A stretch of DNA of 35,747 nt from Gammaproteobacteria bacterium (GCA_036502565.1 DASXYJ010000312.1:1-35747), one strand, 5' to 3'. Shown: positions 11,425-33,779, counted from the first letter of the stretch. Notes: generated from the letters alone by a model not told the origin. Made by a program: numbers and translations.

Positions 11425-11483
11425 GACTTGAGGCCTTGGCTTTTCTTCGGAGTTAGTGGGGCATTTTACTGCGATACATGAGC

Positions 11484-11508
11484 AAACGGCGACCAAGGGC
11501 CGCCGTTT
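11484..11508 (-). terminator. Possible weak terminator or stem-loop between the E2 gene and gdhB
   Basis: aaacggcg/accaagggc/cgccgttt, extendable with one mismatch. There is only a 3-T tail, so read-through into gdhB is plausible. Confidence 0.35.
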
Positions 11509-12786: not shown

Positions 12787-12789
12787 CGA

Positions 12790-13767: not shown

Positions 13768-14887
13768 GGTGTTCGGCCTCCTCGACGGCTTCATCGCGCT
13801 GGGCGGCGAGGCCCTCCGGCAGGTTGGCGAACATGTGATCGAACATGCTCGCCACCGGCGGCTTGCCGGTGTCCTTATATAGTTTCACTTCGGCGTCCAC
13901 CCGCTCGGCGCATTCCGCCAGCAGGGCATCTTCCTTCTTCTGGTCCCAGGCGCCGGTGTCCATGAGGTACTTGCGGATGCGGAGCAGGGGTTCCTTCTTC
14001 CACTCGCCTTCCACCTCGCCCTTGGGGCGATAGCGGGTGGCGTCGTCGGCGGTGGTGTGGTCATGGAGGCGGTAGGTGAGGGCTTCGACGAGCGTCGGGC
14101 CCTTGCCGGCACGCGCCTTCTCCAGCGCCTTATCCATCACGTCGCGCACGGCGATGATGTCGTTGCCGTCCACCTGGATGCCCTCGATGCCGCCGGCCAC
14201 GGCCTTCTGGGCCAGGGTCTCGCAGGCGGTCTGGGCCGAGAGGGGCACCGAGATGGCCCACTTGTTGTTGCACACCACGAACACCACCGGCAGCTGCCAG
14301 GCGCCGGCGCAGTTGATGGCCTCGTAGTAGTCGCCCTGGGAGGTGCCGCCATCGCCGATCACCGTCACCGCCGCGCGCTTCTCCTTGCGCAGCTTGAAGG
14401 CCGTCGCGGCCCCGGCCGCGTGGTGGTACTGGGTGGCGATGGGCACGCACCAGGCGAAGTCATGCTTGGGGCCCGAGAAGTCGTTGCCGCGCTCGTCACC
14501 GCCCCAGAACAAGAGCACTTCATGGGGCTGCACGCCGCGGTAGAACTGGGTGCCGTACTCGCGGTACATGGGGAAGAAGGCGTCTTCCTGCTTCATGGCG
14601 GCGCCGATGCCCACGTGGGTGGCTTCGTGGCCGAGGCAGGAGGCGTAGGTGCCGAGCTGGCCGGTGCGCTGCAAGGCGATGGCCTTGGTGTCGAAGACCC
14701 GCACGAAGCTCATGGCGCGGTACATCTTCAGGAGCTCCTCCTTGTCCTTGGCGAACTTGGGGAGTTCCTTCTGCACGAGCTTGGCTTCGTGGTCGAGGTA
14801 CTGCTGGTACTTGATCTCGAACGTGGCAGCGGTCTTCAAGGCTTCATGCTCCTGGAAAGCCGCCCGGGGCACTTGAGGGACCTTCAT
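13760..14887 (-). CDS. 2-oxoacid dehydrogenase E1 component alpha subunit (TPP-dependent)
   Basis: TPP-binding motif GDGGTSQGDYYEAINCAGAWQLPVVFVVCNNKWAIS. 375 aa. It is first in the E1alpha-E1beta-E2 gene order. Confidence 0.9.
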   Translation of the reverse strand: MKVPQVPRAAFQEHEALKTAATFEIKYQQYLDHEAKLVQKELPKFAKDKEELLKMYRAMSFVRVFDTKAIALQRTGQLGTYASCLGHEATHVGIGAAMKQEDAFFPMYREYGTQFYRGVQPHEVLLFWGGDERGNDFSGPKHDFAWCVPIATQYHHAAGAATAFKLRKEKRAAVTVIGDGGTSQGDYYEAINCAGAWQLPVVFVVCNNKWAISVPLSAQTACETLAQKAVAGGIEGIQVDGNDIIAVRDVMDKALEKARAGKGPTLVEALTYRLHDHTTADDATRYRPKGEVEGEWKKEPLLRIRKYLMDTGAWDQKKEDALLAECAERVDAEVKLYKDTGKPPVASMFDHMFANLPEGLAAQRDEAVEEAEHHG

Positions 14888-15023
14888 GGGGTCCTGCAGG
14901 CCCGCCGGCGGGGAGTGCTTATATAGATAGCGCCCGGCTTAGGGGCCGGGCGGGGCGGAGATTATACATGAGGCACCCCCGTGACCCCCGCCCGGGGCAA
15001 GGGGGTAGATGGGAGGGGTCGGG

Positions 15024-15029
15024 TAGAAT
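15024..15029 (+). promoter_or_regulatory. Candidate -10 box (tagaat) for kynA
   Basis: tagaat lies 28 nt upstream of the kynA ATG. No convincing -35 was seen. Confidence 0.25.
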
Positions 15030-15056
15030 GACGGCACTTTCGGGCTGGAAACGGGC

Positions 15057-15911
15057 ATGAGCGGCAACAAGCGCGAGCTGGAAAAGGGCATCCATACCGA
15101 CCTCAAGCCCCAGGAGACCTACTCCGGCTACCTCAAGCTCGACGTGCTGTTCGCGGCCCAGCAGCCGGTGACCCGGCCGGCCCACCATGACGAGATGCTG
15201 TTCATCATCCAGCACCAGACCTCCGAGCTCTGGATCAAGCTGGTGCTGCACGAGCTGGACGCGGCCATCCGCCACATCCAGAAGGACGAGCTGGAAGACT
15301 GCTTCAAGATCCTCTCGCGGGTGAAGCAGATCCAGATGCAGCTGTTCAACCAGTGGGCGGTGCTGGAGACCCTCACCCCCACCGAATACGCCGAGTTCCG
15401 CTCGGCGCTGGGCGCCGCCTCCGGCTTCCAGTCGCACCAGTACCGGGCGCTGGAGTTCATGCTGGGCAACAAGTCCGCGGAACTTGTGAAAGTCTTCGCT
15501 TACGATCCCAAGGTACACGCGCTGCTCACCGAGCTGCTGAACCGCCCGAGCCTCTACGATGAGTTCCTGCGTTACCTCAAGCGCCGCGGCCTGGCCGTGC
15601 CGGCCGAGCGCGTAGAGCGGGACTGGTCCCAGCCCTACGAGCGGCATCCCGGCGTCACCGCGGTGTTCAAGGAGATCTACGAGGGCACCCGCGAGTGGTG
15701 GGACGCCTACGAGATGTGCGAGAAGCTCGTGGACGTGGAGGAGTATTTCCAGCTCTGGCGCTTCCGCCACATGAAGACCGTGGAACGCATCATCGGCCAC
15801 AAGACCGGCACCGGCGGCTCCTCGGGCGTGAAGTTCCTGGAGAAGGCCCTGTCTTTGACCTTCTTCCCCGAATTGATAGATGTCAGGACCGAGATCGGCG
15901 TCGTTAAGTAG
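15057..15911 (+). CDS. kynA: Tryptophan 2,3-dioxygenase
   Basis: 284 aa. [16 protein letters not shown]...[19 protein letters not shown]...[13 protein letters not shown]...[24 protein letters not shown] are hallmark bacterial TDO motifs. Confidence 0.93.
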
Positions 15912-18482: not shown

Positions 18483-18854
18483 ATGGCGGTGCGTTCTCTG
18501 ATTGCGTGGCTTTTCTTGGTTATCGCAGGCTGCGCGACAGACAATTTCACATTGTTGACTCCGAACGATGGGTGGAATCGCTTGCCGGGGCCCCCGCCTG
18601 GCGAGAAGGCGATTCTCGCGATGGCGGGTGACCAGGTAAATAAGCGATATAACTCGCCTGATCATCCACAGATTGTCTGGTTTGGGCGGAATGAAGGTGA
18701 GTATCTGCTTTATTTCTACAACAAGACTCCCGTCTACCCGGGAAGACAGTCAGAGCATTGCTTCGATCAGATAGTCCATTTTAAAAAGACTGATCAAGGT
18801 TGGGAGAACACCGACAAGAATTGGCCTCAAATGATTCTGTGTGGCAATGACTAG
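18483..18854 (+). CDS. Small hypothetical lipoprotein (123 aa), family not recognised
   Basis: MAVRSLIAWLFLVIAGC is a signal peptide with lipobox IAGC. The ATG is 3 nt after the hmgA stop. The gene is visibly AT-richer: I counted 25 G+C in the 60 nt at 18661-18720. Confidence 0.65.
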   Translation: MAVRSLIAWLFLVIAGCATDNFTLLTPNDGWNRLPGPPPGEKAILAMAGDQVNKRYNSPDHPQIVWFGRNEGEYLLYFYNKTPVYPGRQSEHCFDQIVHFKKTDQGWENTDKNWPQMILCGND

Positions 18855-19847: not shown

Positions 19848-20432
19848 ATGATCACTCCGACTGGGATCCGAGGCCTATGGTTGGCCTCTCTCGCCGGTGC
19901 TTTCACCCTTATCTCAGGATGTGGCGGGATGACTCGGGACGACGGACAGCCTGAGAGCGTCTTGAACAGATTCCCGCCAGGCTGGATCACGGCGGATGAG
20001 AAGTATGAAGATGATGGCGACATCATCGAATATGTGCCGCAGGGCCAGACGGCGGAGAATTGGTCCGAGATGTTGACGTTCCAGACCTTCAAGAAGGCTG
20101 CCAATGCCGATCCTGCGGGCTACCTGAGCAACATGGCTGCCTTGGCCAAGCTGCATTGCGCGTCCAGTAATCTGCTCTTGAAGGATTCCGTGAAGGATAC
20201 CAACGGTCTGAGGACCGAGATCGGCTTGCTGGGCTGCGCCAAGGATTCGAAGACAGGCGAAGACGAGACGACCTTGTTCAAGGTGATCAGCGGTCACCAG
20301 GCCCTGTACGTGGGCCAGATGGCCAAGCGCTCTGATCCAGCCGCCCCGGCGAATCAGCCGAGCGACGCCGAGATCCAGGATTGGGAGACATTGCTGGATA
20401 GTTTCAAGATCTGCCGCGGCACTAAATGCTGA
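19848..20432 (+). CDS. Hypothetical lipoprotein (194 aa), family not recognised
   Basis: The ATG directly abuts the FAH stop (tgaatg). LWLASLAGAFTLISGC is a signal peptide with lipobox ISGC. Four further Cys are present. GC is lower than in the neighbours: 31 G+C in the 60 nt at 19981-20040. Confidence 0.65.
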   Translation: MITPTGIRGLWLASLAGAFTLISGCGGMTRDDGQPESVLNRFPPGWITADEKYEDDGDIIEYVPQGQTAENWSEMLTFQTFKKAANADPAGYLSNMAALAKLHCASSNLLLKDSVKDTNGLRTEIGLLGCAKDSKTGEDETTLFKVISGHQALYVGQMAKRSDPAAPANQPSDAEIQDWETLLDSFKICRGTKC

Positions 20433-21247: not shown

Positions 21248-23680
21248 ATGTTTCATCTACTGCAGAGCGGATTCTTCTGGTGGCCGGTGTTCATCGCCGT
21301 ATTCATCGGCCTCGCTGCCGCGCGTCCGGCGCGCTTCGGCGTGTTCGTGGTGCTGGCAGTGCTGCTGGCCCTGTTCTCGGCCTTCAGCCACAAGGGCGGC
21401 CTCATCGGCCTCTTGTGGGTGATCTACGCTGTCGCCTTGCTGGTGCTGTGGATACCCGCGCTGCGGCGCCTCCTCATCAGCAACCGCCTGCTGAGCTTCT
21501 ATCGCCGTTCCATGCCGGAGATCTCCGCCACCGAGCGCGAGGCGCTGGAAGCCGGCACGGTGTGGTGGGACGGCGAACTCTTCAGCGGCGCACCCCGCTG
21601 GCAGCAACTGCTGGACCTGCCCGCCGCGAAGCTCTCGCCGGAGGAGCAGGCCTTCCTGGATGGGCCGGTGGAGCAGTTCTGCGGGATGCTGGACGATCAC
21701 CGCATCTGCAACGTGGACAAGGACCTCACGCCGGAGGCCTGGCGCTTCATCAAGGAGCGCGGCTTCTTCGGCATGATGATCCCCAAGCAATACGGCGGCA
21801 TGCAGTTCAGCAACACCGGCCACGCTGCGGTGATCCTCAAGATCGCCAGCCGCAGCATCAGCGCCGCGTTGACGGTGATGATCCCCAACTCCGTGGGCCC
21901 CGGGAAACTGCTGCTCAAGTACGGCACCGAGGCCCAGAAGGACCATTGGCTGCCGCGCCTGGCGCGTGGCGAGGAGATCCCCTGTTTCGCGCTCACCGGC
22001 CCGGAGGCGGGCAGCGATGCCGGCGCGCTGCCGGACGTGGGCACGGTGTGCAAGGACGGGCAGGGCACTCTCGGCATCCGCCTCGACTTCGAGAAGCGCT
22101 ACATCTCCATGGGGCCCATCGCCACGGTGCTGGGCGTCGCTTTCAAGCTCGAGGATCCTGAGCACCTCCTGGGTGAGAAGACCCATCTCGGCATCACCCT
22201 CGCGCTGGTGCCGGCCAAGACCCCCGGCGTAAAAGCCGGCACCCGCCACGACCAGCTGCACATGGCCTTCATGAACGGCCCGCTGTATGGCAAGGACGTG
22301 TTCATCCCCATGGACATGGTCATCGGCGGGGTGGAGCAGGCGGGCAAGGGCTGGCGCATGCTCATGGAGTCCCTCACGGACGGCCGCGCCATCTCGCTGC
22401 CGGCCCTCAGTACCGCCACCGCCAAGCTCGCCACCCGCGTCACCAGCGCTTACGCGCGTGTGCGTCGCCAGTTCAAGCTGCCCATCAGCCAGTTCGAGGG
22501 CGTGCGGGAATCCCTGGCGCATCTCGCCGGCAACACCTATGCCATGGACGGGGCGCGGCTCACCACGCTCGCAGCCCTGGACGCGGGCCATAAGCCCGCG
22601 GTCATCTCCGCCATCGTGAAGTACAACCTCACGGAGCGGTCGCGTCGCATCATGGAAGACGCCATGGACGTGCACGGCGGCGCCGCGCTCTCGCTCGGTC
22701 CCCGCAACCCGCTCGGCCAGTTCCACAGCTACCCGCAGATGGGCGTGACGGTGGAGGGCCACAACATCCTGACCCGTAACCTCATCACCTTCGGCCAGGG
22801 TGCCATCCGCTGCCATCCTTATCTATTGAAGGAGCTGCAGGCGGCGGCGAACCCGGACAAGAAGGCGGCGCGCCGCGAGTTCGACGCGGCAGTGATGCAG
22901 CACGTCTCCTTCACCATCAACAACAAGGCCCGCGCCTTCCTGCACGGCCTCACCGGCGGCAACTTCATCGCGGTGCCCACTGCGCCCATGGCGCTGAAGT
23001 GGCATTACCAACAGCTCACGCGCATGAGCGCGGCCTTCGCTTTCGTCACGGACGTGCTGCTGCTCACCCTGCGCGGCGAAGTGAAGCGCCGCGAGCGGCT
23101 CTCGGCGCGCATGGCGGACGTGGTGAGCCAGCTCTACATCGCCTCGGCGGCGCTCAAGCACTACCACGACCAGGGCAACCAGCCCGGCGACCTCATCCTG
23201 GTGGATTGGGTGTGCCGCGACAGCCTCTACCGCATGCAGCAGAGCTTCGATGCGCTGTTCAAGAACCTGCCGAGCCGCTGGTTGGCGTGGTGCCTGCGCT
23301 GCGTGGTGTTCCCCTTGGGCATGCGCTACCGCGCGCCATCCGATGCGCTGGAGCACCAGCTCGCAGCGGCGATACTTCGCCCCTCCGCGGAGCGCGATCG
23401 GCTCACGGCAGGGATGTATCTTCCAGGCGATATGAAAGAGAAAGTGAAGCTCCTGGACGAGGCCTTCCAGAAAGCAGTGGAGACCCGCGGCCTGCGGGAG
23501 AAGCTCAAGGCCGCGGCGCGGGAGAAGACCTTGCAGGCCAAGGGCGATGCCCAGATCACCGAGGCGGTGCAGAAGGAGCTCATCACCCCCGGCGAAGCGG
23601 CGGCGTTGCGGGCCGCGGAATCGCTTCGGCGCGAAGCGATCAAGGTGGATGACTTCGCCGACCTGCGCCGGCCCATTTAG
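21248..23680 (+). CDS. fadE: Acyl-CoA dehydrogenase, long FadE type
   Basis: 810 aa. The hydrophobic N-terminus (FFWWPVFIAVFIGLAA...) precedes an ACAD core (CFALTGPEAGSDAGA, GKGWRMLMESLTDGR) and a C-terminal DUF1974-like extension, as in E. coli FadE. Confidence 0.92.
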   Translation: MFHLLQSGFFWWPVFIAVFIGLAAARPARFGVFVVLAVLLALFSAFSHKGGLIGLLWVIYAVALLVLWIPALRRLLISNRLLSFYRRSMPEISATEREALEAGTVWWDGELFSGAPRWQQLLDLPAAKLSPEEQAFLDGPVEQFCGMLDDHRICNVDKDLTPEAWRFIKERGFFGMMIPKQYGGMQFSNTGHAAVILKIASRSISAALTVMIPNSVGPGKLLLKYGTEAQKDHWLPRLARGEEIPCFALTGPEAGSDAGALPDVGTVCKDGQGTLGIRLDFEKRYISMGPIATVLGVAFKLEDPEHLLGEKTHLGITLALVPAKTPGVKAGTRHDQLHMAFMNGPLYGKDVFIPMDMVIGGVEQAGKGWRMLMESLTDGRAISLPALSTATAKLATRVTSAYARVRRQFKLPISQFEGVRESLAHLAGNTYAMDGARLTTLAALDAGHKPAVISAIVKYNLTERSRRIMEDAMDVHGGAALSLGPRNPLGQFHSYPQMGVTVEGHNILTRNLITFGQGAIRCHPYLLKELQAAANPDKKAARREFDAAVMQHVSFTINNKARAFLHGLTGGNFIAVPTAPMALKWHYQQLTRMSAAFAFVTDVLLLTLRGEVKRRERLSARMADVVSQLYIASAALKHYHDQGNQPGDLILVDWVCRDSLYRMQQSFDALFKNLPSRWLAWCLRCVVFPLGMRYRAPSDALEHQLAAAILRPSAERDRLTAGMYLPGDMKEKVKLLDEAFQKAVETRGLREKLKAAAREKTLQAKGDAQITEAVQKELITPGEAAALRAAESLRREAIKVDDFADLRRPI

Positions 23681-23804
23681 ACTGATTCGCGGTTTCCGTC
23701 CAGCAGCCATCCCTGCGCTGAGTTACCATAACACGACTTATTTCGCGCCCTCAGCGGCGCATGGGAAACCGTTCCCACCGGAGCGGTGACAGGGAATCAA
23801 AGGG

Positions 23805-26588
23805 ATGTCCAAGTCATTCGGTCTGCGCCGGGTCCTCGCCGGACTCGTCCTGCTCTGCGGCCTCGTCGCCGGCGGCGACGCCTGGGCGGTCACCAACTGC
23901 AGGGTGACAGGCGCGGTCAACGTCACGCTCTCGCCTTGTCCTTACAGCAAGACCTTCAAGTTCGGCACCTCGAGCCCCGTGACCTTCAACGTGGCCATGA
24001 CCGGCATCCCGGACACCGAACGCTACTTCGTCGCGATCGGGGGCTCGCAGCCCATCATCCAGCCCAACACCTTCTCGCTCAGCGGCACCTTCAATAACTT
24101 CCAGATCCACTTCGAGACCTACGACAAGATCCCCTCGGGCAAGCAGTCCAGCGTGCTTAACGTGTTCCTGTGCCGGGACAGCGCCTGCAAGAACCTGCTG
24201 GCGGAAGTAGGGCTGCCCTATACCTTCGACGTGGTGGTGCCACCCGCCATCTCAGGCCTCTCGCCCAGTTCCGCCACCATCGGCGGCTCAGCGTTCACGC
24301 TCAAGGTCAACGGCGGCGGCTTCACGCGCGACTGCAAGATCCATCTCGGCAGCAGTGTGCTCACCACCACTTATGTATCCGTCAAGCAGCTCACCGCGAG
24401 TGTGAACCTTGGCAGCGTCACCAAGGGCCAGACTTACAACGTCACCGTGGTGCCGTCCACCAACATCGGTTCCAACGTGGAACATTTCACGCTCAAGAAC
24501 CCGCTGCCGGTCATCACCAAGTTGTCGCCGCGTTCAGGCACGGTTGGCGTGGCGCCTTTCACGCTGGCGGTCACCGGCAAGGGCTTCATCAGCGGCTCCG
24601 TGATCAAGCTGGACGGCACCACGCTCAGCACCAAATACATCTCCCCGACCAAATTGACCGCGACGGTCGATCTGTCCGCAGTCACGGCGGGAAGTGGTTA
24701 TACGGTGACAGTGTCTTCACCCGCTCCCGGAGGTGGAGTATCCGGTCAAGTGAGCTTCGCCTTGAACAACGCCGCTCCCGTGATCACGGGTATCTCACCG
24801 AATCAGAGCAGCATGTCGATATTCCCGAAGGTGGTGACCGTCACGGGGAGTGGTTTCCAGCATAACTCACAGATCCAATGGAACGGCGTCAACCAGTCCA
24901 CGGGCTATATATCTTCAACCCAACTGACAGTGCAGTCGCCGTTCGCCGCGCTGACCACTGCAAATCTGGACACATTGACCGTGACCACCCCGAGCCCCGG
25001 TGGCGGCGTCTCCAATACAGCCACCCTGGAGGTCGATGCCCCGGCGCCGACCCTCGCGTGGGTGTCGCCGGGACGGATATACACCGGGAGCGGCGATGTG
25101 ACCGTCACCGTCAAGGGCGGGTTCCTGAACACCAGCTATCTGGCGTGGAACGGTACGCCCCTCACCAATTTGATCCCGAACTCGCTCTATTACCTGAAGG
25201 GTACGTTTCTACAGGCGACCATTCCCGCGGCTGACTTGACCATGGCCGGCTCCAGCGTCTTGACCGCCGTCACGCCCGGGCCTGGCGGAGGCAGCATCGA
25301 TGTCACGCTGAATATCGTCCAGCATCCGCCGCAGATCACTGGACTCAGTCCGGGTTTCGCGCTGCCCGGCGGGACTGATTTCACCCTGACCCTGGATGGC
25401 ATGGACTTCGATTCCGGTGCCCAGGTGTTCTGGAACGGCGACCAACTTACCATCACCCAGATATCGTCCAGCCAGATCCAGGTGACGGTGCCCGCGGCCG
25501 AGATCGCGTCCGCCGGTGTGGCGAGCATAACCGTCGTGAATCCGGCGGCATCCGGGGGCGTATCGGCAATGGCGACACTCGCGATCGATGCCAGTGGCAC
25601 CGCCGTGGTGGCCCTTGCCCAGCCGTTGAACGACATCGAGTGGGATCCGGCCAAGTCCATCTTCTATGGCGCAGTGTCTGCCTCGGCTTCCAGCGACCCG
25701 CACTCGATCATCAGTATCGACCCCGCCGCTGCGGTGGCAACCGATTCCGTCGATACCACGGACGAACCGATCCTGCTCTCGCTGTCAGGGGACGATACCT
25801 TCCTCTATGCCGGATTCACCAGCCTCTCTGGAGGAAACAGCAGTTACCGGCGCTATTCGCTCCCGTCATTCAGCCAGGATTGGAGTCTATCTTTGCCGAT
25901 ACTGAGCAACGGCCATCCCGAATATCTCAAGGCTCTGCAGGTATCACCCACCTTCTCTCGCCTCTACGCATTCGTAGTCGGAGAAGTCGGTTTTACCACG
26001 TCTAATTCCGGCGTCTCTGTCACGCTCGACGGATATGACACATGGCCCGGTTTTGCCGGCGAACCCTGGGATACTTTGGCCTGGAGCCCAGACGGCACGT
26101 ATCTCTACGGCGGCGATTCAGAGACCAGCACCGCGTCTTTCATGGTTGATGGCTACAGCGATGGTTTCTACCCTGGAGGCGGTACTACAGGGATCAATCC
26201 GATCGTCCATAACGTATGGTCGGGCAGTCGCATGCATGTGGACGCGGCCTCGGGTTTGGTCTACGCGGACAATAGCGCCGCCGTGATCGTGCCCACGACC
26301 GGACAGGCCACGGCCACACTACCGGTTTCCGGTGTGATGGTGCCGGACTCGTCGCTCGGCTGCGCCTACTTGATCACCCAGACCCAGGCCCAGATCGACG
26401 CGGCTGCCGGCGATTGGACGCTGTCGTGCTATAGCACAGCGGATTACACCAGCGTGACGCGCTCCATGGTGATCCCGGGGGTCAACGGCACGCCAACCAA
26501 GATGCTGCGCTGGGGCAACGAAGGCCTGGCCATCCAGACCACCACTTCCATCTATTTCATCTCCGGCCAGATCGTCACCGGGAACTGA
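23805..26588 (+). CDS. Secreted IPT/TIG-repeat protein, paralog 1 (927 aa)
   Basis: Sec signal MSKSFGLRRVLAGLVLLCGLVAGGDAWA, then a 4-Cys N-module, five ~88-aa IPT/TIG-like modules and a ~331-aa C-domain ending LRWGNEGLA...ISGQIVTGN. Confidence 0.85.
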   Translation: MSKSFGLRRVLAGLVLLCGLVAGGDAWAVTNCRVTGAVNVTLSPCPYSKTFKFGTSSPVTFNVAMTGIPDTERYFVAIGGSQPIIQPNTFSLSGTFNNFQIHFETYDKIPSGKQSSVLNVFLCRDSACKNLLAEVGLPYTFDVVVPPAISGLSPSSATIGGSAFTLKVNGGGFTRDCKIHLGSSVLTTTYVSVKQLTASVNLGSVTKGQTYNVTVVPSTNIGSNVEHFTLKNPLPVITKLSPRSGTVGVAPFTLAVTGKGFISGSVIKLDGTTLSTKYISPTKLTATVDLSAVTAGSGYTVTVSSPAPGGGVSGQVSFALNNAAPVITGISPNQSSMSIFPKVVTVTGSGFQHNSQIQWNGVNQSTGYISSTQLTVQSPFAALTTANLDTLTVTTPSPGGGVSNTATLEVDAPAPTLAWVSPGRIYTGSGDVTVTVKGGFLNTSYLAWNGTPLTNLIPNSLYYLKGTFLQATIPAADLTMAGSSVLTAVTPGPGGGSIDVTLNIVQHPPQITGLSPGFALPGGTDFTLTLDGMDFDSGAQVFWNGDQLTITQISSSQIQVTVPAAEIASAGVASITVVNPAASGGVSAMATLAIDASGTAVVALAQPLNDIEWDPAKSIFYGAVSASASSDPHSIISIDPAAAVATDSVDTTDEPILLSLSGDDTFLYAGFTSLSGGNSSYRRYSLPSFSQDWSLSLPILSNGHPEYLKALQVSPTFSRLYAFVVGEVGFTTSNSGVSVTLDGYDTWPGFAGEPWDTLAWSPDGTYLYGGDSETSTASFMVDGYSDGFYPGGGTTGINPIVHNVWSGSRMHVDAASGLVYADNSAAVIVPTTGQATATLPVSGVMVPDSSLGCAYLITQTQAQIDAAAGDWTLSCYSTADYTSVTRSMVIPGVNGTPTKMLRWGNEGLAIQTTTSIYFISGQIVTGN
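24240..25592 (+). repeat. Five tandem IPT/TIG-like modules inside paralog 1 (protein-level repeat)
   Basis: Each module starts P-x-[IL]-[ST]-x-[LIV]-SP, carries FTL.V.G.GF, then L.[AT].[VL], and modules 2-5 end P.PGGG[VI]S (GGS/SGG variants; module 1 lacks it). Five were counted by eye. Confidence 0.7.
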
Positions 26589-26615
26589 CCCCGGCTCTGC
26601 CACAAGGGACACAGG

Positions 26616-29336
26616 ATGTTATCTCTGCGCCGCCTCCTCGCGGGTCTCCTGCTGCTCTGCGGCTTGTGCCTGGGCGGCCAGGCCTGGGGCGCTGCACCGG
26701 CCTGCAAGGCACAGGGCGCAGTCAACATCTCGCTCTCGCCCTGTCCGCTGGCCGTGACCTTCAAGGTCGGTACCGACGAGCCGGTGGCGGTGCACGTCGT
26801 CCTGTCAGGCAATGTGCCCAGCAACTTCTTCGTGTTGCTCAGCCAGTCCGTTCCCGTGATCGAACCCGGCAGCTACCATCTGTCGGGCACCCCGGGCAAA
26901 TTCCAGATCCTGTTCTCCAGCTCCCGCCAGATCAGCGCGGGCAAGCATCCCGTCGAATTGGACGTGAAGATCTGCGCCGACTCGGCCTGCGCCCAGGTGT
27001 TGGTGGATGTGGGCCTGCCTGCCGTCTTCGACGCCGTGGTGCCGCCGCGCATCTCGAGCCTCACACCTGCCTCCGCCAAGGTGGGCGGGACGAGCTTCAC
27101 CCTGCGGGTGAACGGCGCCGGTTTCAGCAGGGACTGCAAGATCCGCTTGGGCAGCACCGTGCTGGCCACCACGTTCAAGTCCGCGAGCCAGCTCGCCGCC
27201 AGGCTCAATCCCAGCAGCCACAACAAGGGGCAGTCTTACAGCGTCAGCGTGATGCCGGCTACCGGCTTCGTCTCCAACGTGGTGCAATTCACTTTCAAGA
27301 ACCCGCTGCCGGCCATCACCGCCATCAGCCCTGTCGAGCTGCCGGCCGGCACCACGGACTTCGCGCTGACGGTCACCGGCACCGGCTTCACCACTGCCTC
27401 CAAGATCAACGTGAATGGCTTTCCGTTCCCCACCAAGTTCGTCTCCAGCACGAAACTGACGACGGGCGCCGCGAGCCTCACCAACGGCGCTGGCGGTCAC
27501 AGCTATCCGGTGGCCGTATACAGCGACGGTCCGGGTGGCGGTCCGTCCAATAGCGAGGACATCACCCTCGACAACATGGCGCCGGTGATCACCGGCATCA
27601 GCCCCAGCTCGACCTTGCTCCAGAACACCAGCAACATCACGGTCAGTGGTAGCGGCTTCGAGCCCAATTCCGTCATCGTGCTCGGGGGCACCCCGCTGCA
27701 GCCCTTTGTCGCCACCAGCACGTCGCTGACGGCCGAAGTGCCGGGCGCGCTGTTGCAGTCACCGGCATTCCTGTCGGTGGCCGTATCCACGCCGGCACCC
27801 GGTGGCGGGATCGCCACCGGACCGGATTTCACCGTCGAGGCGCCGGCGCCGATCCTGTCCTGGGTGTCGCCCGGCAAGTTCCACGTGGGCGACGGCGACC
27901 AGGTCCTGACGGTGCGGATCGATGTGGCCCGGTCCAACACGGTCGTGGAGTGGAACGGCACGCCCTTGACCCTGAGCCGTGCTTCCGCGACCGGCAACCT
28001 GATGCAGTTCCTCCTGCCGAGTGCGGATCTCGCTAGCGCCGGCACCGCGACCGTCAAGGCCCTGACGCCGGCGCCGGGCGGCGGCAGCGTATCCCTGCCG
28101 GTGAGCGTGAGCCTGCCTCCGCCGCAGATCGTCTCCCTCAGCCCCGGCTTTACCGCCGCGGGAAGCGGTGACTTCACCCTGGTGCTGTATGGCGTGGATT
28201 TCGATGCCGGCGCGGTCGTGTATTGGGACGGCGTGGCACTGGCCACGACCTACGTATCCGGTTCCGAACTGCATGCCGCGGTGCCGGCGGCGGATATCGC
28301 CGATGCCGGCGTGGCAGCGGTGACGGTGGTGAACCCCGCCGCCGCAGGCGGCACTTCGCTACCGGCGAGCTTCGCCGTGGACGCCAGCGGCAGCGCCGTG
28401 GTGCCGCTGGCCCAGAAGCTCAACGACATGGACTGGGATGCCACCCGCGCCGTGCTGTATGGCTCCATACCTTCCAGCGATGCGGTCCACCCTCATGCCA
28501 TGGCCGCCATCGATCCCATCGCGGCGAGCATCGTCCGCGCCGCGAGCGTCGGCAGCAGTGGCCAGGACCCCAATCTGGTGTCCGTGAGCGCCGACGGCAG
28601 CTTCGTCTATTTCAACGTCAACGGCTCCATCGAACGCTACACGCTGCCGAACCTCACCCTCAGCCAGGGCTTCACGCCCGGCGCCCTGATCACCTCGCTG
28701 AAGGCCTCGCCGCTCTATTCGCATGTGGCCGCGGCAAGTGTGGTGTTCCTCGGGGATCCCTTGCCAGGAGCACCATACGTCGAGATGGACGGCTCCTCCC
28801 TGCACGTCAACTTCGTGTTCGAGGAATGGGACACCATGAGCTGGAGCACGGATGGTGCCAAGCTCTACGCCGGTGACAACTTCAATCATGCCCCGGGCCT
28901 GGACATCATGAACTTCGACCTGTTGGCGGCCACCCAGACTCCCACCCAGCACGTCGCTCCCTGGGCCGGCACCCGCCTGGATCTGGATGCGGGCTCGGGT
29001 CTCATCTACGCCGACGACAGCACGCGGGTGATCGATCCCTCGACGCTGCACTTCACCACGGCGGTCTATCCGCTCTCCGGCGTGATGACTCCGGATTCGA
29101 CCCTGGGCTGTGCCTATTTCATCGCTCAGACCGCGACACAGGTGACGACGGGGACCAACGACTACACGTTGTCCTGCTATAGCACGGCGGACCAGACGCA
29201 AACCCGCTCCCTGGTGATCCCGGCGGTCAACGGCAAGCCAACCAAGATGCTACGCTGGGGCAACGAAGGCCTGGTGTTCATCACCGATGCGGGCTATATC
29301 TACTTCGTATCGGGGCAGGTAGTGACGGGGAATTGA
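26616..29336 (+). CDS. Secreted IPT/TIG-repeat protein, paralog 2 (906 aa)
   Basis: Signal MLSLRRLLAGLLLLCGLCLGGQAWG. It has the same architecture and anchor motifs as paralog 1 and starts 27 nt after its stop. Confidence 0.85.
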   Translation: MLSLRRLLAGLLLLCGLCLGGQAWGAAPACKAQGAVNISLSPCPLAVTFKVGTDEPVAVHVVLSGNVPSNFFVLLSQSVPVIEPGSYHLSGTPGKFQILFSSSRQISAGKHPVELDVKICADSACAQVLVDVGLPAVFDAVVPPRISSLTPASAKVGGTSFTLRVNGAGFSRDCKIRLGSTVLATTFKSASQLAARLNPSSHNKGQSYSVSVMPATGFVSNVVQFTFKNPLPAITAISPVELPAGTTDFALTVTGTGFTTASKINVNGFPFPTKFVSSTKLTTGAASLTNGAGGHSYPVAVYSDGPGGGPSNSEDITLDNMAPVITGISPSSTLLQNTSNITVSGSGFEPNSVIVLGGTPLQPFVATSTSLTAEVPGALLQSPAFLSVAVSTPAPGGGIATGPDFTVEAPAPILSWVSPGKFHVGDGDQVLTVRIDVARSNTVVEWNGTPLTLSRASATGNLMQFLLPSADLASAGTATVKALTPAPGGGSVSLPVSVSLPPPQIVSLSPGFTAAGSGDFTLVLYGVDFDAGAVVYWDGVALATTYVSGSELHAAVPAADIADAGVAAVTVVNPAAAGGTSLPASFAVDASGSAVVPLAQKLNDMDWDATRAVLYGSIPSSDAVHPHAMAAIDPIAASIVRAASVGSSGQDPNLVSVSADGSFVYFNVNGSIERYTLPNLTLSQGFTPGALITSLKASPLYSHVAAASVVFLGDPLPGAPYVEMDGSSLHVNFVFEEWDTMSWSTDGAKLYAGDNFNHAPGLDIMNFDLLAATQTPTQHVAPWAGTRLDLDAGSGLIYADDSTRVIDPSTLHFTTAVYPLSGVMTPDSTLGCAYFIAQTATQVTTGTNDYTLSCYSTADQTQTRSLVIPAVNGKPTKMLRWGNEGLVFITDAGYIYFVSGQVVTGN
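27042..28385 (+). repeat. Five tandem IPT/TIG-like modules inside paralog 2
   Basis: Same module signature, for example PPRISSLTPASAKVGGTSFTLRVNGAGF and PPPQIVSLSPGFTAAGSGDFTLVLYGVDF. Confidence 0.7.
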
Positions 29337-29386
29337 AGCTCAGACCGGCGCCCGTGATCTGCCGGCCACAGAACTGAGGGGGATGG

Positions 29387-32119
29387 ATGGATAGGATCGA
29401 ACGACTGCTCGCGGCAGCAGCAGTCTTGCTGTCTTGCATGCTGGTCCCGGGAATCGCCGCGGCCGCAGATTGCAGTGCCTCGGGCACCTTGTCCATCAAG
29501 CTGGCACCTTGTCCGCTGAGCAAGCAGCTCAAGGGTGGTGCGGGCACGCCGCTCGCAGTCAATGCCAGCGTCGCCGTCAACGCTTCCATCTCGGGCGGCA
29601 TCGCCATCGTGATCGGAGACTCCGCTCACGTCCTGGACAGCAGCACCCTCTCGCTCATCCAGACCGGACCTACGACCTTCACGCTGCGGTTCGATTCCAA
29701 CCCGAGTCTCGTGGTAGGCACCCATACGGGACGCATCACCATCAAGGTCTGCAGCGATACGAGCTGCCGGACCACCTATGTGTCGGTGGACCTGCCATAC
29801 ACCCTCACCGTCGTCTCTCCCCCGAAGCTCAGCAAGCTCACGCCGGCGTCGGCCACGGCCGAAGGTGCGAAGTTCACCCTGAAGGTGTCGGGTTCCAGCT
29901 TCAAGGCCGGCGACCGGATACGCTTCGGCTCCACGTACCTGGCCACGACCATCAACTCCGGCACGCTGCTGTCCGCGGTGGTGGATGCCCCGGGGATGCG
30001 GGCAGGCAAGACGGTGGAGATCAGCGTGGTCGACACTGCTGGTTTCCAGTCGAATTCGCTGGCATTCAGCCTCAAGAACCCGATCCCCACGCTGACGAGC
30101 GTCAGCCCGGCCAGCGGCAAACTCGGAGCCGCGCCGTTCACCCTCACAGCGCGTGGCAGCAAGTTCACCACCACCTCGGTCCTCATGATGGACGGCGTGG
30201 CGCTCGCGACCGAGTTCGTGTCACCCCACGAGCTGACTGCGAGGGTCAACCTGTCGTCCGCCACTGCAGGCGCACTGCGCGACATCACGGTGCATACGCC
30301 TACTCCGGCTGGCGGCACGTCGGGCGCCCAGGTCTTCGAGGTCGATAACCTTGCCCCCAGCGTCAGCGGGCTCTCCCCGAGCTCCGTGACAGCAGGCAGC
30401 GGAGGCTTCACCCTCAAGATACTCGGCACCCAGTTCGAGGCTGGATCCGTGATCACAGTGGGCGGGGCTTCGCTCACACCGGGCGCCGTATCCGCCCAGG
30501 AGCTCGACGTGTCGGTACCCGCCAGCATGATCCAGGCCGGTTCCGATCTTCCCGTGGTCGTCACCACGGCCGCACCCGGTGGCGGTGTGTCCAGCCCGGT
30601 GCAGTTGGTGGTGAGTAACCCCGCGCCCACCGTAACCTTGATGTCGCCTCTGCATGCAGAAGCCGGTGGGGGTGACATGAGGATCATGGTGGAGGGGAGC
30701 AACTTCAATTCCAGCACGATGCTGGAGTGGGATGGCACGCCCCTGCAGACGCTGTCGCAGACTTCCACGCTGCTGACAGCGATGCTGCCGGCGGCCGACC
30801 TGGCAACTCCCGGCACCGGGACGCTGGCCCTGGTGGCGCCGGCTCCGGGCGGTGGTGAGGTAGACAAGTCCTTCAGCGTCAGTATCCAGCGTCCCGCCAT
30901 ATCCTCGCTCAGCCCGGGATCCGCAGTGCCGGGAGCCAGCGACTTCACCCTGACGGTGCAGGGCAGCCATTTCGATCCCGCTGCGACCGTGTATTGGGAT
31001 GGCAATGCCCTGAGCACAAGCTTCGTATCCGACACCGAACTGCAGGCGGATGTGCCCGCGGCAGACGTGGCCAGCGCCGAGGTTGCCACGGTGGACGTGC
31101 TCAACCCGCCGGAGACCGGTGGAGTATCAAGGCATGCCACCTTCGCCGTCGCGACGGGTGGTACGGCCGTGATGGAGCTCTCCCAGGGACTGGACGACAT
31201 CGCCTGGGATCCGCTGAACTTCACACTCTATGGCGCCGACACCGCGACTGCCGTCACGGACCCGCATTCCATCGTGGCGATAGATCCCGTGACACTGGCG
31301 ATCCAGGATGCGGTGGATACCACGGAGAGCCCCACCCACCTTTCCGTCTCGAACGGCAGCGAGTTCCTGTATGCCGGCTTCAACGGCACTGGCAGCGGTG
31401 GCTCCATCCATCGCTTCACCTTGCCTGCGCTCACCGACGATCTCAGCGCGCCACTGGGGACGAACTTCCTGGGTGCGATCGTGCCCGGAGCCCTGGAAGC
31501 CTCGCCGGTGTATCCCCACGTCTTCGCGACGACCTTCAACGACACCTGCTGTTCTCCCAGGAACCAGGGCGTCGGTGTCTACCTCGACGGCGTCTCTCAC
31601 CCCGTGCTTACCGCCAGCATCTGGGATGCGCTGGCCTGGAGCATGGACGGCACCAAGCTCTACGGCGGTGACAACGAGAGCACGGCGGCATCTTTCATGC
31701 AGGTCCCGGTCATCGTCACGCAATCGGGGAAGGAGCAGACCACGGAATCCATATGGATCGGGCCGCGGATGCATGTGGACGCCGGGACCGGGCTCGTATA
31801 TGGAGACTCGACCTTCAACATCATCGATCCGACCAGCTCGACTGTCACGGGCACCTTCCCCTTCCCCGCGCGGGGGGCCATGATCCCGGACTCTTCATTG
31901 GGCTGTGCGTACATCCTCTATCGGGCGAACCAGAGTGGCTTCAACTACACGTTGAGCTGCTACGACTTGGCCAGCCAGACCCTGGTCCGTTCGCTGGCCT
32001 TGTCGGGTCTGAATGGTGCCCCGGTCAAGGTGGTGCGCTGGGGTAACGAGGGCCTCGCGTTCTATACCGATGCGGGCGCTCTGTATGTCATCTCCGGCAA
32101 GATCGTCACCGGAAATTGA
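29387..32119 (+). CDS. Secreted IPT/TIG-repeat protein, paralog 3 (910 aa)
   Basis: Signal MDRIERLLAAAAVLLSCMLVPGIAAA, with gaggggg upstream. It has the same architecture, is the most diverged of the three, and starts 50 nt after paralog 2. Confidence 0.85.
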   Translation: MDRIERLLAAAAVLLSCMLVPGIAAAADCSASGTLSIKLAPCPLSKQLKGGAGTPLAVNASVAVNASISGGIAIVIGDSAHVLDSSTLSLIQTGPTTFTLRFDSNPSLVVGTHTGRITIKVCSDTSCRTTYVSVDLPYTLTVVSPPKLSKLTPASATAEGAKFTLKVSGSSFKAGDRIRFGSTYLATTINSGTLLSAVVDAPGMRAGKTVEISVVDTAGFQSNSLAFSLKNPIPTLTSVSPASGKLGAAPFTLTARGSKFTTTSVLMMDGVALATEFVSPHELTARVNLSSATAGALRDITVHTPTPAGGTSGAQVFEVDNLAPSVSGLSPSSVTAGSGGFTLKILGTQFEAGSVITVGGASLTPGAVSAQELDVSVPASMIQAGSDLPVVVTTAAPGGGVSSPVQLVVSNPAPTVTLMSPLHAEAGGGDMRIMVEGSNFNSSTMLEWDGTPLQTLSQTSTLLTAMLPAADLATPGTGTLALVAPAPGGGEVDKSFSVSIQRPAISSLSPGSAVPGASDFTLTVQGSHFDPAATVYWDGNALSTSFVSDTELQADVPAADVASAEVATVDVLNPPETGGVSRHATFAVATGGTAVMELSQGLDDIAWDPLNFTLYGADTATAVTDPHSIVAIDPVTLAIQDAVDTTESPTHLSVSNGSEFLYAGFNGTGSGGSIHRFTLPALTDDLSAPLGTNFLGAIVPGALEASPVYPHVFATTFNDTCCSPRNQGVGVYLDGVSHPVLTASIWDALAWSMDGTKLYGGDNESTAASFMQVPVIVTQSGKEQTTESIWIGPRMHVDAGTGLVYGDSTFNIIDPTSSTVTGTFPFPARGAMIPDSSLGCAYILYRANQSGFNYTLSCYDLASQTLVRSLALSGLNGAPVKVVRWGNEGLAFYTDAGALYVISGKIVTGN
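29819..31153 (+). repeat. Five tandem IPT/TIG-like modules inside paralog 3
   Basis: Examples are PPKLSKLTPASATAEGAKFTLKVSGSSF and RPAISSLSPGSAVPGASDFTLTVQGSHF. Confidence 0.7.
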
Positions 32120-32137
32120 TTGAGAAGAAGGTTAGAT

Positions 32138-32174
32138 GAAGAGAAGGCCGGCATCTAGCCGGCCTTCTCTTTTC
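32138..32174. terminator. Strong bidirectional rho-independent terminator after the three-paralog array
   Basis: agagaaggccggc/atcta/gccggccttctct is a 13-bp stem followed by tttc. It sits between the convergent genes 29387-32119 (+) and 32191-32661 (-). Confidence 0.85.
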
Positions 32175-32190
32175 TGATGCAGCGTGGCTC

Positions 32191-32661
32191 TTACATCGCC
32201 GCCGCTTCGTGATCCATGCGGAAGAGGGGCAGACCATCCGGCATCCAGCGGCGGTCGTCCTGCATCAGGTCATGCAACCACTCGGCGCGCTTGGCGATGT
32301 CGCCTTCCATGGCCTTCCAGTCCACCTTGGCATCGCCCACCTGGGGTGCGCTGCTGTTGCCTTGCCCCAGGCGCGTCGCTTCCAGCTGCCACTTGAGGGC
32401 GAAGTAGCGGGCCGCCTCGCGCACGGTGCGGGCGGCGCCGGCTTCCGCGTGGTCGGTGGGCACCACGCCGGTGATGACCCAGTATTTCGGCGAGACGCCG
32501 TGCTTGGGCCACACCCGGCCCAGCATGGCGCGGTGCGGGATGATCCACAGCCATTCGCCGGTGATGTCGGAGTCGAAGATCTGCTGCTTGCGCAGGTAGT
32601 CGGCCACCTGCTGCTGCTGGGCCTGATGCCACTGGGCGAAGGCTGCTTCATCGAAAGCCAT
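32191..32661 (-). CDS. DUF4826-like small cytoplasmic protein (156 aa)
   Basis: MAFDEAAFAQWHQAQQQQVADYLRKQQIF...WVITGVVPTDH. The family is recalled from memory only. It lies 30 nt downstream of zapE on the same strand. Confidence 0.6.
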   Translation of the reverse strand: MAFDEAAFAQWHQAQQQQVADYLRKQQIFDSDITGEWLWIIPHRAMLGRVWPKHGVSPKYWVITGVVPTDHAEAGAARTVREAARYFALKWQLEATRLGQGNSSAPQVGDAKVDWKAMEGDIAKRAEWLHDLMQDDRRWMPDGLPLFRMDHEAAAM

Positions 32662-32691
32662 GGAATATCCCTCTGAATCGGAACGCGAATT

Positions 32692-33779
32692 CTAAGGCAG
32701 GTGAGGCTCGGATAGGTACTCTTTTGTTTGCATCTCGGTCAGCCGGCTCCGGGCCCGCTCGAACTCGAATTCGAGTTTCTTGCCGCTATACAGCTCATCC
32801 AGCCCCACCGCGGCGGAGGCCGCGAGCTTCACGCGCCGGTCGTAGAACTCATCCACCAGGGCGATGAAGCGCCGCGCCGCATCCTCGTCGTCCCGGCCGA
32901 GCTCGGGGATGCCGGAGAGCAGCACGGTATGGAAGCTGCGGGCCAGCTCGATGTAGTCCTCCTGGCTGCGCGGCCCCTCGCAGAGGGCCGCGAAGTCGAA
33001 CCAGGCCACGCCGTCCACGTGGCGGCGGGTCGGGATGTTGCGGCCGTTGATGGCGAGGTCGCCGGCTTCCGGCGCATGGTGGCCCGCCAGGCGCGCGAAC
33101 ACCCTCTCCAGGTGCTCATCGGCCTTGGCGCCGGCAGGCACGTAGAAGAGCTGGGTGTCCTGCATGTGCAGCAGGCGATAGTCGGTGCGGCCGCCAATCT
33201 CCACCACCAGGGTATGGGACTTGATCTGGCGGATGGCGGGCAGGAAGCGCTCCCGCTGCAGGCCGTCCTGGTAGAGCCGGTCCGGCGGCACGTTGGAGGT
33301 GGCCACCAGCGTCACGCCCAGCTGGAACAGGTTCTCGAACAGCCTGCCCAGGATCATGGCATCGGTGATGTCCGAGACGAAGAACTCGTCGAAGCAGATC
33401 ACCCGCGCACGGCTGCGGAAGCGCTGCGCCACCAGCTTCAGGGGATCGGCCTGCTCCGGCAGGGACTTCAGTTCCGCGTGCACCTCATGCATGAAGCGGT
33501 GGAAATGCAGGCGCAGCTTGTCCTCGAAGGGCAGCGAGGCGAAGAAGGTATCCATGAGCCAGGTCTTGCCACGGCCCACGCCGCCCCACAGGTACAGGCC
33601 CTTCACCGCCGGTGCCTCGCGGCCCAGGAAGCGGCTCCAGCTGGCGCGGGGCGCGGTCACCAGGCGCTGATAGAGCGCGTCCAGCACGCCCACGGCTCGG
33701 TCCTGAGCCGGGTCCCGCAGGAACCCATGCTGTTCCAGGTCCGCCTCGTAGCGCTGGCGCGGGGTCTGGGGCTGGTCCA

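Follow-up and report, generated by a model that had tools for sequence, protein, structure and literature searches.

What is the role of three large, related and apparently exported proteins that are encoded one after the other between housekeeping genes and have no partner gene of their own? The question is raised by contig DASXYJ010000312.1 (GCA_036502565.1), which carries the NCBI label 'Gammaproteobacteria bacterium' and whose source is an uncultured soil gammaproteobacterium. This metagenome-assembled contig was analysed at its full length of 35,747 bp and is called the window below. It contains three co-directional open reading frames (ORF1, ORF2 and ORF3; 927, 906 and 910 amino acids), all of which NCBI annotates as "IPT/TIG domain-containing protein". 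We consider it reasonably probable that they encode exported, disulfide-stabilised, non-enzymatic binding proteins built as a stalk with a head, and that they are ancient, co-transcribed paralogs residing in a recombination-prone slot.

The three proteins share a collinear plan, i.e. a signal peptide, an N-terminal module (N-module) of ~115 amino acids, five repeats and a C-terminal domain (C-domain). The other two paralogs can be aligned end to end to ORF1 with 48% and 41% identity (41-48% among the paralogs overall), and the motifs SPCP, C.D..C, VVPP, PGGG, SLGCAY, TLSCY, RWGNEGL and VTGN are invariant in all three, so the shared architecture and the anchor motifs listed in the first-pass annotation of the window are borne out. 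The five repeats of each protein match the NCBIfam model NF058597, 'choice-of-anchor Z repeating domain' (CoaZ_rpt_PGGG), at E values of 1e-92 to 1e-105 (9e-101 for ORF1). The scores are 330, 303 and 346 bits against a cut-off of 30, five stretches are matched per protein, and the PGGG signature is present. The Pfam IPT/TIG model PF01833 likewise scores 76.3, 87.3 and 107.9 bits against a gathering threshold of 20.9, with 4-5 stretches in each protein (E = 2e-21 for ORF1). By score, the three proteins belong to both the IPT/TIG and the CoaZ-repeat families. The plan of five IPT/TIG-like repeats had thus been seen correctly, but the repeats are not unassigned, since a curated NCBIfam model covers them.

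The name 'choice-of-anchor' presumably means that C-terminal sorting signals are expected in such proteins (PEP-CTERM, GlyGly-CTERM, LPXTG, T9SS CTD and similar). The window proteins share the tandem PGGG repeats with the NF058597 proteins but carry no C-terminal sorting signal of any kind, and the domains on either side of their repeats, the N-module and the propeller, lie outside all Pfam and NCBIfam models. Among the literature matches listed for 'choice-of-anchor', none dealt with type Z or with a stalk-plus-propeller plan. We also note an unpaired cysteine in the first repeat (RDCKI motif) of ORF1 (C177) and ORF2 (C174), which is absent from ORF3.

The N-module of ORF1 was modelled with AlphaFold2 together with the first repeat (T1). 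The model shows an immunoglobulin (Ig)-like beta-sandwich at a predicted local distance difference test score (pLDDT) of 92.1, and its structural neighbours are tandem-Ig proteins, including the IPT domains of MET and plexins. The four cysteines of the module (C32, C45, C123 and C128 in ORF1) are invariant in 16 family members, in agreement with the four-cysteine module of ~115 amino acids described at first. Each mature protein is thus predicted by the models to consist of six Ig-like domains followed by a propeller. About 18 proteins share this full architecture, all of them from metagenomes.

The wider family of the N-module is considerably larger. A word-indexed search returned a single fragment, as if the module were private to the window family; this was overturned by an exhaustive profile search, which recovered the module from 692 cluster representatives (E <= 1e-10 for 147, with values down to 1e-46). 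The N-module family is unannotated, i.e. it is outside the Pfam and NCBIfam models, and a sequence search of the PDB with its profile gave no match even at E <= 10. The first copy starts within the first 80 amino acids in 141 of 143 proteins, 64 proteins carry 2-4 tandem copies, and a canonical lipobox with a Gly-rich linker stands directly before the module in 113 of 151. The C-terminal partner is nearly always a beta-propeller (PQQ_2/BamB-like in 45 of 69, NHL in ~9 of 69, others in the remainder). Across 69 aligned proteins of the wider family, only the C-x4-C pair is invariant. One protein (P0195) has the exact plan of the window proteins, including five CoaZ repeats, but a BamB-like propeller; another (P0140) belongs to the same family as the window proteins but is a lipoprotein. 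Among cultured organisms, the module occurs in Acinetobacter bouvetii (WP_005011417.1, P0146), in a protein whose annotation covers only the propeller. In lipoproteins such as P0146 and P0195 the module follows the signal peptide directly and a propeller stands at the C terminus, as in the window; they differ in the class of the propeller, and most of them have the lipobox and Gly linker, which ORF1 and ORF2 lack.

The AlphaFold2 model of the ORF1 C-domain is a seven-bladed beta-propeller with 27 strands (pLDDT 92.1, predicted template modelling score 0.91). In Foldseek searches it reached template modelling (TM) scores of 0.70-0.72 to YncE and eIF3i and of 0.66-0.72 to seven-bladed propellers, and its 50 closest structural matches consist of propellers of the WD40 and YncE types. 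A profile of 38 C-domains matched 1l0q (E = 3.4e-22) and 3vgz (YncE; E = 1.1e-11) in the PDB. The match to 1l0q comes mainly from one query blade matching all target blades, and no single sequence reaches a Pfam or NCBIfam threshold. The beta-rich, propeller-like character of the domain stands, and the propeller is less exotic than first supposed, as it resembles those of the YVTN/YncE type. Orthology to YncE was rejected, since the equivalog model NF052280 scores 13.1 bits in ORF3 and 15.2 bits in the second gene of a related locus (L005) against a cut-off of 400. In other CoaZ/TIG-repeat proteins the C-domain turns up once or twice per protein and is thus a portable module. A conserved Cys pair is found in the ORF1 propeller (C853/C875). 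A vicinal Cys-Cys pair is seen in a variable propeller loop of ORF3 (amino acids 721-722, window ~31547-31552). A word-indexed search with the C-domain gave 11 proteins and missed the full-length family, and a local hmmsearch over the retrieved proteins was used. A literature search on YVTN, beta-propeller and TIG returned nothing relevant.

Propellers of this kind could also be catalytic, in which case the proteins would be lactonases, NHL/SGL-type hydrolases or quinoproteins, with the Ig domains only positioning the propeller. A few C-domain relatives do have weak sub-threshold matches to the Pfam families Lactonase, SGL and PD40 (best E 0.012-0.026), and the PDB profile search gave weak matches to gluconolactonases (E 4e-4 to 0.03). 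Nevertheless, none of the 38 C-domain homologs reaches any Pfam threshold, nor was a catalytic family recognised among them, and with the YncE and PQQ-propeller models of NCBIfam the scores are 13-17 bits, far below the cut-offs (287-400). The near-invariant residues are those of the blade structure (D, G, Y, W and the RWG motif), and no conserved His/Glu/Asp constellation is found among the near-invariant columns. We consider an enzymatic function very improbable and binding the more plausible activity.

Signal peptides with n-, h- and c-regions are present in ORF1, ORF2 and ORF3, and the three conserved Cys pairs of the proteins fit an oxidising compartment. Twin-arginine translocation was considered and rejected: 'LRR' occurs in ORF1 and ORF2 but not in ORF3, and the h-regions are strongly hydrophobic. 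Export by the Sec pathway is favoured because disulfide-bonded proteins fit Sec. The earlier claim of secretion with a Sec signal peptide thus holds as to the presence of signal peptides, but the type in ORF3 appears ambiguous: its 'LLSC' fits a lipobox ([LVI][ASTVI][GAS]C at the end of the signal peptide), but is followed by hydrophobic residues and a signal-peptidase-I-like site between AAA and AD. The lipobox pattern is failed by 16 of 17 family members. Most family signal peptides have a Cys-Gly or Cys-Ala pair (LLCG, SLCG, ALCA) ~10 residues before the predicted signal-peptidase-I site; this pair may be what is left of a decayed lipobox, an element that most N-module relatives have kept. 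The NCBI version of ORF3 (HEY3646204.1) begins at the internal Met18, so that little of the signal peptide is left; a start at the upstream ATG (29387), which has GAGGGGG 5-10 nucleotides ahead of it, restores one resembling those of the other two ORFs.

The array is flanked by fadE upstream and by DUF4826, AFG1/ZapE and an acetoacetyl-CoA-synthetase-like gene (aacS) downstream, on the opposite strand. A scan of the window genes confirmed these housekeeping neighbours. What had been missed is that the array is an insert: the related contig L017 is collinear with the window in blastn, at 84-90% nucleotide identity, up to 23668 and again from 32133, fadE abuts DUF4826 directly in it, and an accessory segment of 8,464 bp (the upstream spacer and the three genes) is absent. 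All recovered family loci occupy this same slot, from fadE to DUF4826-AFG1-aacS. According to the gene tables the slot is empty in L017 (a 1.5-Mb contig) and L018; it holds one copy in L006, L007, L010, L011 and L013, at least two in L005, L009, L014 and L016, and three in the window only. The array is dispensable and accessory, with 0-3 copies among close relatives. There is no integrase or transposase in the insert, no enzyme, transporter, regulator or secretion gene inside the array, and no conserved partner gene in 12 related loci, which agrees with the absence of partner genes reported initially. A scan of genome contigs with the three-paralog alignment, for which repeat-internal patterns were chosen, gave only four Acidobacteria repeat proteins and no family locus, and one of metagenome contigs with family-specific C-terminal patterns gave one locus, L016.

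The short direct repeat TAGAC/TAGAT stands at the edges of the segment (23678-23682 and 32124-32128); it is too short to distinguish a target-site duplication from chance or microhomology. In two related loci (L009:1455-3563 and L008:5780-7756) the same slot contains an unrelated secreted protein of ~700 amino acids with weak DUF6242 and BamI-like propeller matches, which suggests that the slot between fadE and DUF4826 collects different exported proteins. The L009 protein ends in GGGGGGDFSLLCLAALLSLLSGRRFLS, which resembles a sorting signal of the GlyGly-CTERM/rhombosortase type. Although labelled 'Bacillota bacterium', contig L014 (GCA_050261675.1, JBLNDO010000070.1) carries family genes and shares the gene order DUF4826-AFG1-aacS-peptidase S10 with the gammaproteobacterial loci; it is probably mis-binned or mislabelled.

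As the window is a metagenome-assembled contig, the three copies could in principle be an assembly artefact or decaying pseudogenes. Assembly duplication was ruled out by the divergence of the copies: they share no DNA repeat longer than 73 nucleotides (at 93%), and with 41-48% identity a collapse or duplication is implausible. Moreover, all three frames are intact and under purifying selection, and independent assemblies from other samples show the same genes in the same slot. The artefact explanation is practically negligible.

The paralogs are old, since their synonymous divergence (dS) is ~1-1.6, i.e. saturating, and since each type has relatives in other genomes, as the idea of an old duplication had implied. 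P0002, P0003 and P0004 are of the ORF1 type, the back halves of P0005, P0015 and P0024 are of the ORF2 type, and the second L005 gene is of the ORF3 type (55% identity), with which P0018 also groups weakly. The ORF1 type stands first where two copies are seen. It is conspicuous that the copies have recombined. Up to approximately codon 205, inside the first repeat, the nucleotide sequences of P0005 and P0002 are ~99% identical; beyond it the identity falls to 40-65% and P0005 is ORF2-like. P0005 is thus a chimera of copies 1 and 2 with a sharp breakpoint, as expected from unequal crossing-over between them. The trees of the N/T1, T2-T5 and C regions disagree, and the number of repeats is 3 in the second L005 gene and P0078, 5 in most proteins and 7 in P0018.

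Selection was estimated as the ratio of nonsynonymous to synonymous divergence (dN/dS) from ORF1 and P0002 only, the sole unsaturated ortholog pair (dS 0.47); comparing paralog with paralog was dropped because of the saturating dS. The overall ratio is 0.24, and by region it is 0.05 in T3, 0.15-0.19 from T4 and T5 through the propeller, 0.25-0.29 in T1-T2 and 0.57 in the N-module, which is the fastest-evolving region. The genes are intact and under purifying selection, which is weakest at the N-module. The suggested diversification of exposed surfaces was overstated: no region reaches a dN/dS of 1 (range 0.05-0.57), and mosaic recombination accounts for much of the divergence pattern. A composition shift had also been reported. 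The count of 32 G+C at 24841-24900 is exact, but the effect is small for the array (63.9% vs 65.5%) and clearer at third codon positions (GC3), where ORF1, ORF2 and ORF3 have 0.79, 0.86 and 0.81 vs 0.85-0.95 (~0.90) in the neighbour genes.

Copy and repeat number that vary, a fast-evolving N-module and fast-evolving blades 2-4, and a GC3 below that of the neighbours would all suit an arms race in which positive selection diversifies a receptor, a decoy or a surface protein that faces phages. However, dN/dS stays below 1 in every region, its maximum of 0.57 being a regional average from one ortholog pair that could hide a few selected sites. No diversity-generating retroelement is indicated, as there is no reverse transcriptase among the scanned window genes and no near-identical template/variable repeat pair in 23700-32200. 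The PADLOC and PHROG libraries gave no match at E <= 0.01. We regard an arms race as improbable; of the receptor, adhesin and decoy roles proposed earlier, a binding role would be favoured, and a decoy or defence role has little in its favour.

The layout of the genes is operon-like. The spacers between ORF1 and ORF2 and between ORF2 and ORF3 are exactly 27 and 50 nucleotides long, the starts after them are preceded by Shine-Dalgarno-like motifs (AAGGGA and GAGGGGG, respectively), and neither is predicted to fold more stably than its shuffled counterparts (z +0.57 and +1.33). The coordinates, the short spacers and the lack of hairpins in them were thus reported accurately, and the three genes are probably co-transcribed. 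A strong hairpin followed by a T-run lies between the convergent ORF3 and DUF4826 (dG -34.4 kcal/mol, z -5.85; none of 200 shuffles was equally stable). A homologous hairpin stands between fadE and DUF4826 in L017, where the array is absent, right after the fadE stop codon. The terminator is thus ancestral, common to the convergent fadE and DUF4826, and predates the array; in other words, the hairpin said to close the array is real but not array-specific. In an alignment of 8 upstream regions the block GAGTTACCATAAC is conserved among the closest loci, and more distant loci have a -10-like CATGACATAAT at the matching position of the spacer between fadE and ORF1. This block is a candidate promoter of the array's own. 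In L005 a terminator hairpin separates fadE from the first family gene. An Rfam scan of 23000-33000 gave no match.

Taking the above together, we propose that removal of the signal peptide would leave a rod of six Ig-like domains bearing a seven-bladed, YVTN/YncE-like propeller. The Cys-containing first Ig-like domain would act as the base module and the other five, the CoaZ/IPT-TIG repeats, would follow it, with the base module at the envelope-proximal end and the propeller as a distal binding head. The proximal position of the base is inferred because three quarters of the N-module relatives follow a lipid anchor directly. Column entropy is 1.03 bits in T5 and highest in the N-module (1.79 bits); within the propeller it is 1.6-2.6 bits in blades 2-4, which are indel-prone, and 0.3-1.0 bits in blades 5-7. 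The conserved sector (T5 and blades 5-7) would probably be a rigid common core, whereas blades 2-4 and the fast-evolving N-module probably make the paralogs differ in what they bind. In the slot, the copy number (0-3), the repeat number (3, 5 or 7) and the domain combinations would change through homologous recombination and unequal crossing-over. A placement of the variable loops on the top or bottom face of the propeller was dropped in favour of a statement by blade sector.

Several points weigh against this proposal. The blades were assigned from a DSSP string and not from coordinates, i.e. the sector boundaries are approximate. A scan for sigma-70 consensus sequences found no promoter on the + strand upstream of ORF1; the same promoter and terminator scan also missed the strong hairpin after ORF3. 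Expression, secretion, surface exposure and binding are all predictions from sequence. ORF1 (VLLC) and ORF2 (LLLC) have Leu at position -1, a non-canonical lipobox, and no hydrophobic C-terminal tail is found in any of 133 retrieved relatives. Finally, the nearby window genes provide neither a secretion system nor an outer-membrane anchor or sorting signal, and the proteins may therefore stay in the periplasm.

Periplasmic retention is the alternative that these last points touch most directly. The proteins would then be Sec-exported scaffolds or binders, soluble or envelope-associated, like propellers of the YncE, BamB or TolB type. Indeed, their only export signal is the N-terminal signal peptide. 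Each of the proteins stops at its last propeller strand (...SGQIVTGN) without a C-terminal anchor, no autotransporter beta-barrel, RTX or TPS domain was found in them with Pfam and NCBIfam, and the window holds no transporter gene. The closest solved propellers, by structure and by profile, include the periplasmic YncE, and most N-module relatives are lipoproteins with BamB/PQQ_2-like propellers, a class whose best-known member faces the periplasm. On the other hand, the repeats are of the NF058597 type, whose name we take to refer to surface proteins, and 0-3 copies among close relatives fit an environment-facing role better than envelope housekeeping. Moreover, a substrate of type II secretion needs no recognisable signal, so that the lack of one is not evidence for retention. 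Export to the surface or the medium by type II secretion and retention in the periplasm would both be compatible with the data; retention is possible, and we give it a limited share of our belief. We continue to favour exported stalk-and-head proteins, whose features are compiled in the following table together with other genes of the window.

Coordinates of the ORF1-ORF3 array, its surroundings and other genes in the window
Feature	Position	Strand	Remarks
ORF1	23805-26588	+	927 aa; HEY3646202.1
ORF1 signal peptide	23805-23888	+	aa 1-28
ORF1 N-module	23889-24239	+	aa 29-145; Ig-like beta-sandwich (model)
ORF1 stalk	24240-25586	+	five ~88-aa CoaZ_rpt_PGGG (IPT/TIG-type) repeats; NF058597, PF01833
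ORF1 T1	24240-24506	+	
ORF1 T2	24507-24776	+	
ORF1 T3	24777-25046	+	
ORF1 T4	25047-25325	+	
ORF1 T5	25326-25586	+	
ORF1 C-domain	25587-26585	+	aa 595-927; predicted propeller
ORF2	26616-29336	+	906 aa; HEY3646203.1
ORF2 signal peptide	26616-26693	+	
ORF2 N-module	26694-27041	+	
ORF2 T1-T5	27042-28379	+	
ORF2 propeller	28380-29333	+	
ORF3	29387-32119	+	910 aa; HEY3646204.1 (893 aa, 17 aa shorter)
ORF3 signal peptide	29387-29461	+	
ORF3 N-module	29462-29818	+	
ORF3 T1-T5	29819-31150	+	
ORF3 propeller	31151-32116	+	
Upstream block GAGTTACCATAAC	23720-23732	+	candidate promoter
Hairpin with T-run	32131-32178		between ORF3 and DUF4826
Accessory segment	23669-32132		absent from L017
MATCAP-family ORF	5238-6530	-	429 aa
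NAD-specific glutamate dehydrogenase	6616-11496	-	1,625 aa
Branched-chain keto-acid dehydrogenase E1a/E1b/E2 operon	11533-14887	-	adjoins glutamate dehydrogenase
Scanned ORF	14919-15800	-	no Pfam match
Probable real gene at this position	15057-15911	+	284 aa
ORF in homogentisate cluster	18483-18854		123 aa; no Pfam match
ORF in homogentisate cluster	19848-20432		194 aa; no Pfam match

Further upstream of fadE, the window contains the homogentisate pathway, the branched-chain keto-acid dehydrogenase and a large NAD-specific glutamate dehydrogenase with all its ACT and helical-motif domains, the latter two being ordinary housekeeping genes. A neighbouring ORF matches Pfam PF08014 MATCAP over its full length (E = 2e-134); this family (microtubule-associated tyrosine carboxypeptidase) is named for a eukaryotic enzyme, and the window ORF is a bacterial homolog. 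Where a minus-strand ORF had been scanned, L006 and L017 have, at the position matching 14919-15911, a + strand tryptophan 2,3-dioxygenase of 284-288 amino acids, and the real gene of the window is probably the corresponding plus-strand ORF. The two small ORFs of the homogentisate cluster are found at the same place in L017 and L018; the counterpart of the second one there matches PF27161 HI_0983 weakly.

The analysis gives a domain-level annotation to three proteins of ~900 amino acids hitherto described as 'IPT/TIG domain-containing', and flags two domain families outside Pfam and NCBIfam, namely the Cys-containing Ig-like N-module (~700 clusters) and the YVTN-like propeller that travels with CoaZ/TIG repeats. 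The locus is also a clear, small example of an accessory array kept in a conserved housekeeping slot in uncultured soil Gammaproteobacteria. Should the proteins turn out to act as receptors or adhesins at the surface, the locus would lend itself well to studies of recombination-driven diversification of binding repertoires. A more far-reaching and rather doubtful idea is that the N-module defines an undescribed, widespread class of envelope-tethered receptors, mostly lipoproteins, with a base, an optional Ig stalk and an interchangeable propeller head, of which the window array would be a strain-specific repertoire reshuffled by recombination. Were this true, the reshuffling of base, stalk and head would change the recognition of, e.g., polymers, neighbouring cells or prey. 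We regard the findings as modestly novel in that one N-module family is paired with propellers of different classes and the slot recombines with 0-3 copies; the parts are mostly of known types and we do not claim a new mechanism.

How, then, do these proteins compare with known systems? The first-pass annotation had been unable to assign them to a described system, a view that goes too far, as the repeats are curated (NF058597), the propeller is YVTN/YncE-like and an NCBI annotation exists. It had also drawn a parallel to plexins and semaphorins. The ectodomains of semaphorins, plexins and MET do combine a seven-bladed propeller with IPT/TIG domains, but in reversed order; the window proteins have no PSI or Sema Pfam match (E <= 0.1), and the Sema domains of semaphorins, plexins and MET are absent from the propeller's 50 closest structural matches, which are of the WD40 and YncE type. 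The analogy is thus limited to generic folds. The best bacterial structural neighbour is the periplasmic seven-bladed YncE of E. coli (3VGZ/3VH0/7SEU; DNA-bound in the 3VH0 crystal), with TM scores of 0.69-0.72, which differs in being a stand-alone propeller without an Ig stalk.

The best profile match of the C-domain, the Methanosarcina mazei surface-layer fragment 1L0Q (a tandem YVTN beta-propeller with PKD), likewise joins a seven-bladed propeller to Ig-like domains and is extracytoplasmic. It differs in being archaeal and in having the propeller N-terminal to the PKD domain, and it superposes poorly overall on the window model (TM 0.51, root-mean-square deviation 12.9). The PDB entry 3BWS, which we take to be the Leptospira lipoprotein Lp49 with an Ig-like domain and a seven-bladed propeller, matches the propeller profile at E = 1.9e-6. 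It is an exported bacterial protein with the same order of domains, Ig-like first and propeller last; it differs in having one Ig-like domain instead of six and in being a spirochaete lipoprotein, and the sequence likeness is that of a single blade motif. The nearest described analogues of the window proteins are therefore extracytoplasmic proteins that combine Ig-like domains with a seven-bladed propeller, for which we take 1L0Q and Lp49 to be examples.

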